Below are positions 3,922 through 12,836 of a stretch of DNA of 64,000 nt, one piece after another. The translations under genes and the position numbers were made by a program. The notes under the pieces were generated by a model that was not told the DNA's origin, did no database searches, and worked only from the letters and a program-made list of their open reading frames with translations. The DNA comes from Promethearchaeota archaeon (GTDB lineage Archaea; Asgardarchaeota; Lokiarchaeia; Sigyniarchaeales; SOKP01). Positions within the stretch are counted from its first letter, which is position 1; each line of letters opens with the position of its first letter. The DNA lies in NCBI GenBank assembly GCA_016839765.1, contig JAEOTP010000043.1:119655-183654 (forward strand). Direction: 5' to 3'.

Positions 3922-4962
3922 TTATTCTAAAATCATCATTTTATCTTGTTTTTGATCTGTTAATAATATTCTAAAATATTCCTTATTATTCCTAAAAATG
4001 ACTTTTTCCAACTTTCCCTCAACAAGAACAGTTTCTCCTTTAATTGCATGTTCACAGAATCTTCCTCTGAAGGAATTTATCGTAATAATATCATCCAATT
4101 TAATATTTTTTGAAATGCATATATTATTGTAGGCTTTTATGCATTCTATTTTATAGGAACAAGGTGTAAAGATAGCATTGGAGTCATCAGTGATTTTTGC
4201 TTTTAATTTTATTCTTCCCATATTTTTATATGAATAATCATAGTAAGTTCCTTTCCAATCTTTAGGACTTTTTATATATCTTATAAAAAATTCAAATCTC
4301 TTATACATGCCCTGATGGAGTTTCCTTCTCTCACTTTTTAAAAAATTTTCAAATGGTATTCCTGAACCTCCTACTCTCCATCCATAATGAGTGCGGTATT
4401 CTTCTTTGGAATATTTTCTACAATATTTATCTTTTTCCAGGATAATAGCAAGCTTATTTTGGAAATCTCGGCTTATGTCTGTTCCATAAACAATCAAATC
4501 AATATCAGATTGATTTTTGCTTAATCCAACCATTTGTGAACCTGTTATACCGATTGAACCATATGGGAGTAATGAATTCTCGATAAGTAATTCACAAAGC
4601 TCTTTAGAACATTTTTCAAGATGGTTAGGATTAAATTTCTGAGATAATTCTTTATAGTATTCTCGTGGGGTATAAATTTCTTTAATATCCTCATTTTTAA
4701 CACATTGTAGCTCTAAATCGAATTGTTTAGAGAAGAATAAATAATTTGGATGATTATTTCTTAGGAAGGAGAATCTTTCTTGTAAATCGTAGATCTTTTT
4801 AAATTTCTTTCCATTTTTGATTCGATCTCCATCTAGATGAGGATAAAAACGTATAAAACAAATTTTTCGATCAGAAGGGTGATGGACCCCTTTCACATCG
4901 AAAAAAAAGTTATCATTTTTAGTTTCTATATAATCTCCTTCAATTCCTTTAGGAATTTTCAT
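3922..4962 (-). CDS. Predicted archaeal nucleotidyltransferase (Pol-beta superfamily)
   Basis: GITGS-x9-SDIDLIVYG motif; C-terminal VEGKLE OB-like segment. Confidence 0.75.
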   Translation of the reverse strand: MKIPKGIEGDYIETKNDNFFFDVKGVHHPSDRKICFIRFYPHLDGDRIKNGKKFKKIYDLQERFSFLRNNHPNYLFFSKQFDLELQCVKNEDIKEIYTPREYYKELSQKFNPNHLEKCSKELCELLIENSLLPYGSIGITGSQMVGLSKNQSDIDLIVYGTDISRDFQNKLAIILEKDKYCRKYSKEEYRTHYGWRVGGSGIPFENFLKSERRKLHQGMYKRFEFFIRYIKSPKDWKGTYYDYSYKNMGRIKLKAKITDDSNAIFTPCSYKIECIKAYNNICISKNIKLDDIITINSFRGRFCEHAIKGETVLVEGKLEKVIFRNNKEYFRILLTDQKQDKMMILE

Positions 4963-4982: not shown

Positions 4983-6086
4983 TTAATATTTTGAAGGAGT
5001 TTTAGATTTGATTTTATATTTTGGTATCTCTTGAACTTTTTTCAATTCTTTCTCAAAATCTCTTTTTTCTCTAAGGAACCTCTCTTTATCTCTTTCTAAT
5101 TTTTCTCTTTCTCTTCTAATAGCATTTTTTTCAGTGTCTATCATCGACTTTTCTTTTACTAAATGCTTATAATCATTATTTAATCTTTTTTGTTTATCTT
5201 CCAAATCACGAATCTTGCGTTCTAATGAATAATAAGTATCTTCCGCTTTAGGAACTTTCCTATTTAGCTCTTTTAATCTTGTTTCTTGTTGTTGTTTCTT
5301 TTTTTCCAAATTTCTTACATCATTTTCAATTTTATCTCTAAAGTTTTCCAAATCTTCTTTTTTTTTATCAATTTCACGAGCTTTAAGATTTAGATCTTTT
5401 TTTTTAATACGATTTTTTTCTTTTTCATCTTTTAATTTTCTTTTTTCATCATCAATCCGGTTTTTTTCATCAAAAATGTTTTTTCTTAGATCATTGATTT
5501 CTTTATTTAAATTATCCCTTTCTTTTGAAAGATGTTTGATTTCATTTCTCAACTCCATTAATTCATTTTCTAATTTTTCAATTGTTCTCTCTAATGCATT
5601 TTCTCTTCTTTCCATTCCAGGTATTTTGGTTTTAATCTCTTTAACACGAACTTCTGCTCTTGCTTTTTCTCTTTCTAAATATTTTTTCTCACTTTCTAAA
5701 GCGTCTTTTAGTCTATCTAACTTTTCTTGATATTTATCTAGGTCGGCATTTTTTTGATCTAACTCTCTTTCTTTTAAACTTAGATTATTTCTATGTTGCT
5801 TTATTCCATTTTTCATTCTTTCTAATTCACTTTTTAACTTTTCACGTTGGTTTAGAAGATTTTTGACTTCAAGTTCTTTCTCTTTTCTCTTTTTTTCAAG
5901 TTCTTTTATATTATCTTGATACCCTTCAAGTTTTTTAATAACCTTTTCCCAATCGCTTTTTTCTCTGTTTAACTTTATCCTTTCTTCCTTTATCTTTTTA
6001 AGTAGTCTTGTATCTTGAATAATTTCGATTTCTTCTTCTGGCGTTTTCTCTCGAATTTGATACTTAGGAATTGGTTTATCATTCAT
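4983..6086 (-). CDS. Long coiled-coil protein with a repeated terminal IPKY-x4-KTP motif
   Basis: K/E/R/L-rich heptads throughout; IPKYQIREKTP at N-terminus, IPKYKIKSKTP at C-terminus. Confidence 0.85.
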   Translation of the reverse strand: MNDKPIPKYQIREKTPEEEIEIIQDTRLLKKIKEERIKLNREKSDWEKVIKKLEGYQDNIKELEKKRKEKELEVKNLLNQREKLKSELERMKNGIKQHRNNLSLKERELDQKNADLDKYQEKLDRLKDALESEKKYLEREKARAEVRVKEIKTKIPGMERRENALERTIEKLENELMELRNEIKHLSKERDNLNKEINDLRKNIFDEKNRIDDEKRKLKDEKEKNRIKKKDLNLKAREIDKKKEDLENFRDKIENDVRNLEKKKQQQETRLKELNRKVPKAEDTYYSLERKIRDLEDKQKRLNNDYKHLVKEKSMIDTEKNAIRREREKLERDKERFLREKRDFEKELKKVQEIPKYKIKSKTPSKY

Positions 6087-6290: not shown

Positions 6291-6719
6291 ATGGAGTTTG
6301 ATGAAGAATTTGATGAAGAGTTTGATGATGAATTTGATGAAGAACTTGATGAAGAACTTGATGAAGAATTAGAAGAACCTTCTGCAAAAACTCCAGCGGA
6401 AGAGGTTAAAGCTAAAACTCCAGCGGAAGAGGTTAAAGCTAAAACTCCAGCAGTTAAAGCTTTTTCGGCAGGAAAAAAGATTTCAGTTTATTTTATGTCG
6501 ACAATAGGTCCTGGTGAAAAAAAGCAAAAATTACTCATAAACACAGGAAACAGCGTTGGGGATATAAAAGAGACTGTTGCGAATTTATTTGGTTTAGATC
6601 CTGCTGATTTTCATTTATCTTCAGGTGGAATTACCATGGATGAGAGTTCAAATGTAAGTGAATATAACGTGAATGATGGAGAAGATATACTATTAATTCC
6701 AGCAAGTACTGCTGGTTAA
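6291..6719 (+). CDS. Ubiquitin-like (beta-grasp) protein 1 with acidic repeated N-tail, C-terminus PASTAG
   Basis: Ubl pattern SVGDIKETV...FHLSSGGITMDESSNVSEYNVNDGEDILLI (compare ubiquitin TIENVKAKI...[29 protein letters not shown]); AGGTG RBS upstream. Confidence 0.85.
   Translation: MEFDEEFDEEFDDEFDEELDEELDEELEEPSAKTPAEEVKAKTPAEEVKAKTPAVKAFSAGKKISVYFMSTIGPGEKKQKLLINTGNSVGDIKETVANLFGLDPADFHLSSGGITMDESSNVSEYNVNDGEDILLIPASTAG
6297..6451 (+). repeat. Intragenic tandem repeats: degenerate 12-bp units (F/L-D-E-E), then 27-bp units AAAACTCCAGCGGAAGAGGTTAAAGCT x2.4
   Basis: 27-bp units at 6387-6413 and 6414-6440, partial at 6441-6451. Confidence 0.9.
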
Positions 6720-8571: not shown

Positions 8572-8898
8572 ATGAGTTTTGAAGAAGATTTTGATGAGGA
8601 ATTAGAACCTGTTAAATCTAAAACACCATCTACCAAAATTCCTTCAGCAGGAAAGAAATTGACTTTATACTTTACGTCAACCATTGGACCTGGTGAAAAG
8701 AAGGAAAAATTAACGGTAAATGATGCTAATCATGTAAGTGATATTAAGGAAACATTAGGAAATTTATATGGCCTTGATCCTAATGATTTTCACTTATCAT
8801 CTGGTGGAGTTACTATGGATGAAAATAGTCAATTAAAAGATTATAATTTAAATGATGGCGACGATATTCTTTTGATTCCTGCGAGTACTGCTGGGTAA
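8572..8898 (+). CDS. Ubiquitin-like protein 2, acidic N-tail, C-terminus PASTAG
   Basis: Close paralogue of 6291..6719 (shared STIGPGEKK, DIKET, DFHLSSGG, DILLIPASTAG); directly upstream of E1. Confidence 0.88.
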   Translation: MSFEEDFDEELEPVKSKTPSTKIPSAGKKLTLYFTSTIGPGEKKEKLTVNDANHVSDIKETLGNLYGLDPNDFHLSSGGVTMDENSQLKDYNLNDGDDILLIPASTAG

Positions 8899-8977: not shown

Positions 8978-10213
8978 ATGGTGATAATATTGGATAAAGA
9001 TTCAGATTTTTTTGCAAAAGCATTGTCAGTAAAAGAGAGAGATTTGTATGATCGCCAGTTTCGTCTCGAGGGCTGGTCCCAAAAATTAGTAAAAAACTCG
9101 AGAGTGTTAATTGTTGGTGTAGGAGGTTTAGGATGTGAAATTGCTAAAAATTTAGCCATGTTAGGGTTAGGCCAATTAGATCTTGTTGATTTAGATATCA
9201 TTGAACATTCTAATTTGAATCGTCAAATTCTTTTCACAGATGCGAAGATAGGAGAACCTAAGGCAGTTGTTGCTGCTCGAAAACTAAAGGAAATTAACCC
9301 TAATATTATTGTTAAGGGATATCATACATCTCTAGAAAGATTAAATCCTGCATTATATCAAGCTGCTGAAGTTGTAATTGGGGGCCTTGATTCAATGAAT
9401 GCGCGCTTGAACTTAAATGCTCAATGCATAAGATTTAGAAAACCACTCGTAGATGCAGGAGTATCAGGTTATCATGGTCATATTTACACTATCTTTCCGT
9501 ATCAAAATGCTTGTTATGAGTGCAATCCATTACCAGTAAGTGAAAGTGATGAAATGGCAGCTTGTACAGTTGTTGGAGTCCCCAGAAAAAGGATTCATTG
9601 TGTTTTTAAAGGAGATATGGCATTTAAAGAAAAGTTTGATAGAGATCCAAATCCAAAAGATATAAATGATATTAAATTTATTCAAAAAGTTGCAAATGAA
9701 TTGGTCAATAAACATAATTTCTTACCTGAATACACTAAAGATGATATCATAAAAATCATTGATAGGCATGATCCTGGAATAATTACCATAAATGCAGTTA
9801 TTTCTGCTTTACAATCACATGAGGTAGTAAAAATTCTTCATTGGAAAAAAGGTCATAAAGGATTAGGAGAACCTATTAAAAATTATGTGATTTTTAATGC
9901 CATGACGATGAAATTATACCATATTGAAAAAACGAGAAATCCAGAATGTTCTCAATGTGGTAAATCTGTTAGAAGAGTAGCTATAAAAATGAGGTCTCAA
10001 TCGCCATGTATAAATATAATTAAGATATTAAAGAAAAACGGATTTGAATTGGAGCCTGATTTTGAACCTGTGCTAACCTTATTGGATTTCAATGATATTA
10101 AAGTAATTGATTTAGAACAGAATACTATTGAAAACGGTTTAAGAAATTACGAATTTATTACAGTTGCAGGGTTTAAGGGTGGAGAAATTTATGTAACCTT
10201 AAAATTAAAATGA
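8978..10213 (+). CDS. E1 Ubl-activating enzyme (ThiF/UBA family, Uba2/Uba3-like)
   Basis: YDRQFRL, GVGGLGCE, DLDIIEHSNLNRQ, CYEC, catalytic-Cys-like CTVVGVPRKRIHC, TINAVISA, CSQC. Confidence 0.92.
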   Translation: MVIILDKDSDFFAKALSVKERDLYDRQFRLEGWSQKLVKNSRVLIVGVGGLGCEIAKNLAMLGLGQLDLVDLDIIEHSNLNRQILFTDAKIGEPKAVVAARKLKEINPNIIVKGYHTSLERLNPALYQAAEVVIGGLDSMNARLNLNAQCIRFRKPLVDAGVSGYHGHIYTIFPYQNACYECNPLPVSESDEMAACTVVGVPRKRIHCVFKGDMAFKEKFDRDPNPKDINDIKFIQKVANELVNKHNFLPEYTKDDIIKIIDRHDPGIITINAVISALQSHEVVKILHWKKGHKGLGEPIKNYVIFNAMTMKLYHIEKTRNPECSQCGKSVRRVAIKMRSQSPCINIIKILKKNGFELEPDFEPVLTLLDFNDIKVIDLEQNTIENGLRNYEFITVAGFKGGEIYVTLKLK

Positions 10214-10319: not shown

Positions 10320-10847
10320 ATGAGTATAAGAAGTAGTCGCGTTTCCCGCGATTTTGCTGGATTAAAAAAAATGCTTAAAGTTGGTACTATAGTTCAACTA
10401 AAACCATTTAATTCTAAAAAAAAGAGCATTGATCATTTAGCTATCACAATTAAAGGCCCTAAAGGTACTGTCTTTGCTGGGGGACTTTTTAAACTAGAAA
10501 TGAGATTCCCTGCTCAGTATCCTAAGCAGCCTCCTTTTGTAAGAATGCATACTCCAATTTGGCATCCAAATTTTTGGCCAAAACCAAGTGAATACAAAGG
10601 AAAGAGAAATATTTGTCTAGCATTAATAGACCCTTCCTTAATTGGGAAAAAGGGTGGATGGAGTCCTTCAAAAACCGCTGTTACAGTAGTTCAAGCAATA
10701 ATTGCTATGTTAAATACCCGGGGTAAATATGTAAACCCAACAGATGTTTTTAATAAAAAAGCAGCAATAGAAATGATGAAAAATCCTAAATTTTTCGAGA
10801 AAAAAGTTAAAAATTTAGTGAAGAAGTACGCTAAGAACAAGTGGTGA
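10320..10847 (+). CDS. E2 Ubl-conjugating enzyme (UBC fold)
   Basis: GPKGTVFAGGLFKLEMRFPAQYPKQPP, WHPN, NICL (catalytic Cys), WSPS. Confidence 0.93.
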   Translation: MSIRSSRVSRDFAGLKKMLKVGTIVQLKPFNSKKKSIDHLAITIKGPKGTVFAGGLFKLEMRFPAQYPKQPPFVRMHTPIWHPNFWPKPSEYKGKRNICLALIDPSLIGKKGGWSPSKTAVTVVQAIIAMLNTRGKYVNPTDVFNKKAAIEMMKNPKFFEKKVKNLVKKYAKNKW

Positions 10848-10854
10848 AATCATA

Positions 10855-11661
10855 ATGAATATTGATGAGAAGAAAAACAATTTAATCAAAGAAGCAATAA
10901 AGCAAAAAATTAAAGAGAAAATTAAAAAAGAATTACTTGAAGAGATATATACCGAATTACAATTAGAAGAAGAATTAAGGGAAGAAATAACTTCTGAACT
11001 TATTGAAACCCAGCCATTAGAGCATTCAGAAACAGTTAAAGCCAAACTTGAACCCATACCAATGGAACCGGTAAAAACATATGCTAAGAATGATAAAGCT
11101 GAAGCAAAAGTAGCTCTAACAGTAAAAGCTGTCCTTAAGATCGCTAGTCATTCATTAAAATATGCTCATTCTAAAATTCGAAGAGAGGAATGGGTTGAAG
11201 TGATAGGATTACTCGCTGGAAAATTTGACAATACTAAAGGAGTCCTTCATGTGGAAGATGCCTATCCAATGGGACATGGTACAGCAGTTTATGCTGAAAT
11301 TAAAGATTATAAAAATTATGTTAGAGCTTTTAAAGACATAAAAAAGAACAGCCTTTTTATTTGTGGATGGTATCATTCCCATCCTTCTTATGGATGTTTT
11401 ATGTCTAAAGAAGATTTAGGAACTCAAGCAAGATACCAAAAATTATGGGATAAAGCAATTGCGCTAGTTATAGATCCATACCAAATTGATGGCACTTCAT
11501 TGGGTTTTGAAATCTATCGTGCGAATTTTAAAACAAATAAGTGGTTTTCAGTACCATTTGATATTAAAGGATATTTAGATGTGAGAATGTTGCCGGAAAT
11601 TTTGGAATTTATGAATCCAATCATTGAAGGTAAACCTGTTTATTTAGAATATGATGAATGA
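10855..11661 (+). CDS. JAB1/MPN+ (JAMM) metalloprotease, Rpn11/CSN5-like, with N-terminal coiled coil
   Basis: EVIGLL...GWYHSHPSYGCFMSKED...ALVIDP. Confidence 0.92.
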   Translation: MNIDEKKNNLIKEAIKQKIKEKIKKELLEEIYTELQLEEELREEITSELIETQPLEHSETVKAKLEPIPMEPVKTYAKNDKAEAKVALTVKAVLKIASHSLKYAHSKIRREEWVEVIGLLAGKFDNTKGVLHVEDAYPMGHGTAVYAEIKDYKNYVRAFKDIKKNSLFICGWYHSHPSYGCFMSKEDLGTQARYQKLWDKAIALVIDPYQIDGTSLGFEIYRANFKTNKWFSVPFDIKGYLDVRMLPEILEFMNPIIEGKPVYLEYDE

Positions 11662-11684: not shown

Positions 11685-12836
11685 ATGGTTAAAAAGAAGG
11701 GTTTAGCAATAATATTTATTGTTTTTCTAATAATTGGTATAATACATAGTTCTATCTCAATTTCCTTAAATATTTTTTTAACTTGGATATTTATTGGTTT
11801 ATGGATAATTTTTACGATTAAGATTTTTGAAAATATAAAGCAGCATCGCGAATTCAATTCACCACATAATACTGCTTTTTTTGTAATCATCCCTTTATTC
11901 ATCGGAATTTTTTACTCCATTTGGGGGTATTTTACAGGTATATTGGGTGAAAACCTTCTTGAAGGCTCAAATATATATTTTAGTTGGTGGAGTCTCATTT
12001 TTGGATTTCCATTTATAATATATGGTTCTTATTCTTTATATCGTTGTTTTAAGAAATATAATGTAATCTATTTTGGAACCAAGTCAGTAAAAGCTAGGAC
12101 ATTAGGATATATTTTAACTTCCACAGTTATTCTTTTTATAATAATTTATTGGGTAATGTTTTATAGTGTTATAGAATTTTATGATTCTCTATTAACCCCT
12201 CTTCATTTTTCTTTAAATCTAAATCTTCTATTATTATTCATTGCATCATTATTGATCTTTATTATTTTTGGATTAGCTAGTTCACATAGAACACTTCCAA
12301 CATTAACTCGGGATTACATTGCTCAACGTACTAGAAGAATAAATTCATTAAGTACTCCTACAATTCAAAGGCAAAGGGTACGTACAACAACTAGAACTAC
12401 TCCATCACCTTCAAGAAGAACTGTGACTCAAACAACGAGGTCTAGATCTCATTCATCGAGAACAACACCTACTTCCCAAAGGCAAAAAACTAGAACAACA
12501 AAAACTACTAGAACTAGAGCCGTAAAAACAACTTCAAAAGCTATAAATTTAGATAAATATAAACCAAGAGCATCATATCTGTCAGAAGATGATTTTAAAT
12601 GTATTTTTTGTTTTAAGCTGCCAAAACTACCCGATGATAATGGCAGAGGGATAATTGTATGTCCAAATTGTAGATATCCGGCTCATGCTGATGAATTTAA
12701 AGATTGGCTAAGAACCTCAAATCTCTGTTCAAGATGTAGTACTCCCATTCCATCCAGATTTAAACATAATCCTAGAATAATTAGTATAAAAAATTATCAA
12801 ATAGTCTATAGGCATTTTTTAAAGAAGAAAAGATAA
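11685..12836 (+). CDS. Multi-pass membrane protein with C-terminal RING-variant zinc finger (putative E3 ligase)
   Basis: About 6 hydrophobic segments, R/T/S-rich linker, C-x2-C-x16-C-x2-C-x4-H-x2-E-x3-W-x6-C-x2-C; last gene of the E1/E2/JAB run. Confidence 0.72.
   Translation: MVKKKGLAIIFIVFLIIGIIHSSISISLNIFLTWIFIGLWIIFTIKIFENIKQHREFNSPHNTAFFVIIPLFIGIFYSIWGYFTGILGENLLEGSNIYFSWWSLIFGFPFIIYGSYSLYRCFKKYNVIYFGTKSVKARTLGYILTSTVILFIIIYWVMFYSVIEFYDSLLTPLHFSLNLNLLLLFIASLLIFIIFGLASSHRTLPTLTRDYIAQRTRRINSLSTPTIQRQRVRTTTRTTPSPSRRTVTQTTRSRSHSSRTTPTSQRQKTRTTKTTRTRAVKTTSKAINLDKYKPRASYLSEDDFKCIFCFKLPKLPDDNGRGIIVCPNCRYPAHADEFKDWLRTSNLCSRCSTPIPSRFKHNPRIISIKNYQIVYRHFLKKKR

Follow-up and report, generated by a model that had tools for sequence, protein, structure and literature searches.

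The coiled-coil protein encoded on the reverse strand at positions 4983 to 6086 of the window (the whole stretch of 64,000 nucleotides that was analysed, to which coordinates refer) is a good candidate for the natural target of the ubiquitin-like (Ubl) system encoded beside it, a putative role read from sequence. On balance, we favour a model where the lysine of a short K-x-P motif, present at both ends of this rod-shaped protein and in the tails of the Ubls, would be a Ubl acceptor, the rod would be a two-ended substrate or scaffold, and the Ubl tails would build chains. The motif lysine is never arginine, is disordered and repeated, is common to the modifier and to a co-inherited partner, and is encoded beside isopeptide enzymes; it is, therefore, best read as an acceptor.

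Natural substrates of archaeal E1-E2-E3 systems have so far been hard to name, as the Caldiarchaeum system illustrates (PMC5654768). The locus described here offers a protein, two residues within it, a consensus and, in the modifier, a site for chain growth. It suggests that archaeal relatives of eukaryotes have a SUMO-like ‘attach here’ code. If this is true, motif-directed, chain-forming modification in the style of SUMO would extend across Lokiarchaeia, Sifarchaeia and Heimdallarchaeia, including Hodarchaeales, and would bear on the origin of specialized Ubl pathways before eukaryotes. A literature search, with subscription papers mostly outside its reach, found no paper on the rod, the motif or the operon.

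The rod gene, the Ubl operon and their joint inheritance

The window belongs to a Lokiarchaeia (Promethearchaeia) genome, its close E1 relatives carrying the label Promethearchaeota. The rod gene (367 aa, net charge +24, single copy) lies head-to-head with the Ubl1 gene across 204 bp, confirming the divergent arrangement given in a preliminary description of this DNA. Past the rod, the gene order is Ubl1, a membrane Ubl, a wHTH gene, Ubl2, E1, E2, JAB and a membrane RING-like protein; those placed below are on the forward strand. Ubl1 (6291–6719) has an acidic N-terminal tail with three K-T-P sites (6387, 6414 and 6441) and a single C-terminal Gly. Ubl2 (8572–8898) combines a beta-grasp fold with a disordered tail carrying K17-T-P (8620–8628) and K22-I-P, and the top Foldseek match of the Ubl model was Caldiarchaeum ubiquitin. 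The E1 (8978–10213) is of the UBA1/2/3 type, the E2 (10320–10847) has the HPN motif and Cys99, both kept in 34/34 homologues, and a JAB/JAMM protease follows (10855–11661). The last gene (11685–12836) is conserved in the operon and encodes a membrane protein whose C-terminal RING-like Cys cluster makes it a candidate E3 by sequence; a Pfam search of this protein gave no match.

By its gene content, the locus belongs to the archaeal E1-E2-RING-JAMM class, as a beta-grasp Ubl with a terminal Gly, an E1, an E2 with HPN and Cys, and a JAMM protease are clustered; the Ubl, E1, E2 and JAB genes all look intact. A promoter scan of the locus with a bacterial model returned chance-level results. RNA-library contigs of Lokiarchaeum ossiferum from one study span the rod gene and the operon and break in the divergent gap, a weak hint of transcription given that contigs cannot show transcription or its level. 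Elsewhere in the genome there is an E2+E1 pair (G000:C23:9999-14028) and a JAB+E1 pair (C33:160627-162026), so the cell has other Ubl systems besides the rod-linked operon. A nucleotidyltransferase-like gene (3922–4962) lies 20 bp downstream of the rod gene in the same orientation; it holds this place genus-wide and is absent from it in other families.

The association of rod and Ubl genes extends well beyond this genome. The Ubl is divergent from the rod in 29/29 loci of the genus that have flanking DNA, as well as in L. ossiferum, in Borrarchaeum and in other families with wholly different outer flanks; in one family (L032 and L033), by contrast, the operon has the rod at its distal end. A divergent Ubl lies within 500 bp in 105 of 116 rod copies (not de-duplicated), and the other 11 are edge cases, artefacts of start calling or still within the operon. 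Four loci titled Odin-, Hod-, Hermod- and Thorarchaeota (L046, L047, L070 and L081) have an E1 83–94% identical to the Loki one, and these labels are probably wrong.

Rod and conjugation enzymes are also lost together. A survey of 161 Lokiarchaeia genomes found rod and E2 together in 121, neither in 23, the rod only in 7 and the E2 only in 10; the 23 double negatives compare with about 6 expected if the two were unlinked, although the genomes are kin and the counts overstate independence. The mismatches are mostly fragmented assemblies, and several genomes lacking both rod and E2 are near-complete (G100, G192 and G181). In a draw of 301 genomes across the phylum, all 65 strong rod matches fell in Ubl-positive genomes, and a strong match was absent from all 179 genomes without this Ubl. 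The single-contig genome G044 (4.4 Mb) is without Ubl, E2 and a strong rod match. Weak matches in the Ubl-negative genomes G044, G062 and G081 (E 1e-11 to 3e-14) were partial and without the ends, and were set aside as generic coiled coils. The preliminary description had proposed checking co-occurrence and had named lack of linkage elsewhere as grounds for giving up its claim; the rod is linked to the Ubl locus across families and lost jointly with it, and those grounds fall away.

It is, thus, very improbable that the rod is a chance neighbour whose motif reflects Lys-rich composition. A proteome-wide scan did find K-x-K-T-P, the form of the motif first proposed, at chance level (13 found against 13.4 expected, four of the 13 within the Ubl locus), but composition accounts neither for linkage across classes despite changing outer flanks nor for joint loss. 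Nor does it fit the terminal elements of the rod, in which 9 of the first 10 codons differ and 8/11 residues are the same: codons have diverged and residues have been kept, so the elements are maintained at the protein level.

The rod and its terminal motifs

The AlphaFold model of the rod is one continuous helix, residues 26–351 (5034–6011, reverse strand, as for the rod features below), with both ends disordered (low pLDDT; pTM 0.25). The hydrophobic period of 3.52 (power 6.6 against 1.6 for the 95th percentile of shuffles) agrees with a coiled coil, which would be ~48 nm long at about 0.15 nm per residue. The internal duplication with Pro breaks that had been suggested for the rod is real. 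Copy 1 spans approximately residues 117–228 (5403–5738), with a kink at Pro156 in K-I-P (5619–5636), and copy 2 approximately residues 240–351 (5034–5369), with a kink at Pro279 in K-V-P (5250–5267); an ungapped self-comparison peaks at offset 123 with a score of 88, above every one of 150 heptad-preserving shuffles, the highest of which reached 77. These internal sites also read K-x-P, with their hydrophobic residues at heptad core positions. Pro279 is invariant among homologues and Lys277 is variable; because the sites are in register with the heptads and their Pro is better conserved than their Lys, they may be kinks only. They look partly structural, that is, kinks with or without modification.

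Rod length among homologues varies twofold, from 281 to 569 aa, in steps that keep register. Anchor-to-anchor spacings of 111, 122, 133, 140, 151 and 154, and also 116 and 123, are built from steps of 7 and 11, as expected if coiled-coil register matters. At one locus (L164:3242-5672), a tandem pair of rod paralogues (303 and 494 aa), each bearing terminal motifs, lies upstream of the Ubl. A homologue search with the low-complexity rod returned one match, and those in the ESM Atlas were all generic coiled coils below 0.9; neither result is informative for such a sequence.

This architecture raises the alternative that the rod is a self-assembling cytoskeletal filament, with identical ends for head-to-tail polymerization and the Ubl system as regulator. 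The unbroken heptad rod, the non-helical head and tail and the 7- and 11-residue indels that preserve register are in its favour, but a Pfam search of the rod found no Filament-family match, only generic coiled coils below the cut-off, and a periodicity test found no significant long-range charge period. Together with the twofold length variation, the occurrence of the motif in Ubl tails and the rod-less disordered protein that takes the place of the rod in Heimdallarchaeial operons (below), this leads us to consider a filament quite improbable.

The terminal elements are each 12 residues long and disordered. The N-terminal element (residues 5–16; 6039–6074) has its candidate acceptor, Lys14, in K-T-P (6039–6047), and Lys14 and Pro16 are invariant in 19/19; the C-terminal element (residues 353–364; 4995–5030) has Lys362 in K-T-P (4995–5003), with Lys362 and Pro364 invariant and Lys in 47/47. 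The sequences quoted in the preliminary description were all found in place (residues 6–19 at the N-terminus and 354–367 at the C-terminus), and KSKTPS is indeed common to the rod (residue 360) and Ubl2, the two copies in the proteome comparing with approximately none in shuffles. The K-T-P that it gave for both rod ends is present, but the K-x-K-T-P consensus that it proposed fits the C-terminal site only, as the N-terminal site reads R-E-K-T-P and does not match. The sharing of the motif with a Ubl tail stands, with the correction that the tail is the disordered N-terminal one and not the C-terminus.

As a conserved unit, K-x-K-T-P proved wrong. The key lysine is the residue directly preceding T-P, the consensus is hydrophobic-x-x-K-x-P, and both the first Lys and the Thr vary; what is conserved across homologues, as first proposed, is a lysine-centred motif common to rod and Ubl tails. 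In a sample of 48 diverse rods (<80% identity), K-x-P was present at both ends in all 46 that were full-length. At the terminal sites, position −3 is Ile in 122/158, position −2 (the first Lys of the earlier motif) is Lys in 69/157 and Arg in 47, and position +1 is Thr in 120/158. Ten residues upstream, many homologues have a second, intact K-x-P, of which Ile-Pro-Lys in the terminal element is what remains here, and copies multiply in tandem in rods and Ubls alike, to three or four per end at most. In the Ubl N-terminal tail, Lys17 and Pro19 are invariant in 40/40 Ubls across the phylum. That the rod is dedicated to the Ubl system is, thus, upheld in the sense of a dedicated partner, by linkage, joint loss and shared motif, and falls as regards a K-x-K-T-P consensus.

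The two-end pattern occurs twice in 3078 called proteins, both copies being in the rod. In the remaining proteome, the K-x-P motif is barely enriched (184 against 166 expected), which argues against a broad code and for what are probably few targets.

The requirement for lysine is strict. The 48 rods contain 237 K-x-P and not a single R-x-P, against a Lys:Arg ratio of 2:1 in these proteins, and at the termini the counts are 158 and 0 within a composition of 1043 Lys and 409 Arg. Other Lys-dominated columns of the rod have Arg about one time in ten (142 against 1289 Lys). Binding of S/T-K-I-P as an EB1-type SxIP-like motif was considered and dropped, as most sites have Thr at +1 and Arg is never used.

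This strictness bears on a rather unlikely alternative, in which the K-x-P strand docks non-covalently on E2, RING, JAB or E1 and the rod, itself unmodified, is bivalent and acts as a tether, spacer or decoy in competition with the Ubl tail. The same linkage and conservation data fit docking, the 12-residue element exceeds what a bare acceptor site needs, and rod lengths in register-keeping steps are spacer-like. Docking motifs usually tolerate Arg in place of Lys, however, whereas Arg occurs at 0/237 sites, and in its AlphaFold model the Ubl tail is disordered and does not dock on its own core.

A lysine that tolerates no Arg would also fit methylation, acetylation or a tight binding pocket, and the motif could be the site of another modification: Lys methylation or acetylation, or proline-directed Thr phosphorylation controlling rod assembly. 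K/R-S/T-K recalls the SET7/9 consensus, the genome has two SET-domain genes, Thr predominates at +1, and the sites border a rod about as long as the lamin rod, which likewise has CDK sites on either side. Against this, Thr is replaced in 38/158 sites, by V, I, K, Q, R, L, A, H and Y and only once by Ser, and the Heimdallarchaeial arrays mostly have Ile. A CDK/MAPK-type phosphosite fits poorly with the 37/158 terminal sites that have no S/T, and a search of the genome found no proline-directed kinase, the kinase matches being only Bud32-like and RIO2-like. A search of three motif-bearing genomes, L. ossiferum included, found no SET domain; SET domains do not go along with the motif. As another modification would also leave the joint loss of rod and E2 unexplained, we judge it improbable.

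Heimdallarchaeial operons and a proposed mechanism

Families labelled Heimdallarchaeaceae and Hodarchaeales have the same operon and no rod. At 14 Heimdallarchaeial loci there is instead a basic, disordered-looking protein of 155–286 aa with 9–16 K-x-P sites; its gene is divergent to that of the Ubl in one family and closes the operon in another. Position +1 is mostly Ile in these arrays, and four of the proteins terminate in the 12-residue element of the rod. K-x-P is enriched in disordered arrays (169 against 94), a figure biased by the selection of arrays on motif density, which leaves their fixed operon position unaffected. No partner was seen in the DNA examined around three operons (L136, L150 and L161). 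The partner is, therefore, constant in its motif rather than in being a rod, an observation that speaks for a substrate or scaffold more than for a structural filament. A conserved hydrophobic protein of ~195 aa with no Pfam match lies beside the K-x-P array at Heimdallarchaeial loci L122–L131, L134, L151 and L155.

Our data are consistent with a mechanism in which the motif lysine accepts Ubl. JAB would trim Ubl precursors, and E1 and then E2 would activate the Ubl, the membrane RING protein probably helping. The C-terminal Gly of the Ubl would be joined to Lys14 and Lys362 of the rod, the same motif in the Ubl tails would allow chains to grow, and JAB would take the tags off again. The product would be a dimeric ~48 nm rod with each tip carrying Ubl chains or enzymes fused to a Ubl. 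Residues past the Gly occur in 67/183 small Ubls, as expected for JAB-matured precursors. With a hydrophobic residue at −3 and a beta-branched one at +1, the motif looks like an extended strand that would be read in a groove, by analogy with Ubc9 on the SUMO consensus. The reader of K-x-P may be the E3 or, by the same kind of analogy only, the E2 itself; a complex prediction for E2, Ubl core and rod residues 336–367 scored 0.22, short of the mark of 0.32, and carries no weight here. The first part of the Ubl1 tail (6291–6380) is acidic, Phe/Leu-spaced and kept across the phylum, and might make electrostatic contact with the basic rod or arrays.

Several larger proteins accompany the operon in other families. 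A HerA/FtsK-like ATPase with a C-terminal Ubl and free Gly is encoded directly downstream of the rod in the Borrarchaeum family (L119:10072-11814, L120:1910-3718 and L149:238-2016), and a CDC48_N-like, vWA and Ubl fusion with a short post-Gly extension adjoins the rod at L032:2213-3964 and L033:5692-7449. Near the operon, some genes encode proteins that pair an N-terminal Cys-x2-Cys with a Gly-ended Ubl at the C-terminus (L143:14770-15660, L141:13703-15658, a tandem pair, and L145:1619-2401), and in several genera a protein of ~690 aa with a C-terminal RING finger is encoded just past the rod (L143:5285-7372, with similar ones in L099, L104, L139, L145, L146 and L166). Speculatively, the HerA-like ATPase and CDC48N-vWA fusions could be cargo fixed to the rod tips. 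A wider and rather doubtful proposal is that a second Asgard Ubl pathway with its own K-x-P code covalently builds structures: a rod of tuned length, close to the membrane, would receive at each tip Ubl chains as well as enzymes fused to a Ubl (HerA-like ATPase, CDC48N-vWA, and Cys-rich proteins with a conjugatable Gly at the end), and the pathway would be an independent or ancestral parallel to SUMO. As cultured L. ossiferum carries the locus (E2, E1 and Ubl being NEF87_002994 to 002996, with the rod adjoining) and the soluble parts are all small, the acceptor reading is testable.

Comparison with known systems

In the SUMO system, Ubc9 reads psi-K-x-E, and chains form via Lys11 of SUMO2/3 and the tail lysines of Smt3. 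The Asgard system likewise has a beta-grasp modifier whose disordered N-terminal tail carries copies of the lysine motif of its putative substrate. The Asgard motif, however, is psi-x-x-K-x-P, and the Ubl ends in Ala-Gly rather than Gly-Gly and is nearer to ubiquitin than to SUMO in sequence, with Rad60-SLD below the cut-off. By phmmer ranking only, the best solved relatives of the E2 are Ubc15, UBE2T and Cdc34, with Ubc9 lower. The locus also has a single-chain E1, JAB in place of Ulp/SENP and a dedicated partner gene beside the operon. The Asgard system is SUMO-like in motif sharing and falls outside SUMO on modifier family, C-terminus and consensus.

The rod of intermediate filaments and lamins, ~310–350 residues long, lies between a head and a tail that are non-helical, and S/T-P sites occur at either end. 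The Asgard rod resembles them in length, in its non-helical ends and in S/T-P at both ends, and differs in its variable length and in having no Filament-family match, linker pattern or charge period. With regard to UFM1, neither the Ubls nor the genome gave a PF03671 match, and the Asgard Ufm1 of PMC12962969 may or may not be the same protein as the Ubl described here. Bacterial Bub/Bil Ubls polymerize through their beta-grasp domains and calcium (10.1101/2024.11.21.623966); these are likewise prokaryotic Ubl operons tied to higher-order assembly, whereas the Asgard rod has no Ubl domain and is a protein distinct from the Ubls.

The Ub-E1-E2-small RING-Rpn11 operon of Ca. Caldiarchaeum subterraneum has the same enzyme set as the Asgard locus (PMC5654768). 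The physiological substrates of that system could not be determined, Rad50 serving as a stand-in, and its Ub chains form on core lysines (PMC5654768). In contrast, the Asgard Ubl carries the motif in an acidic tail, the RING belongs to a membrane protein, and the enzymes are encoded together with a candidate substrate.
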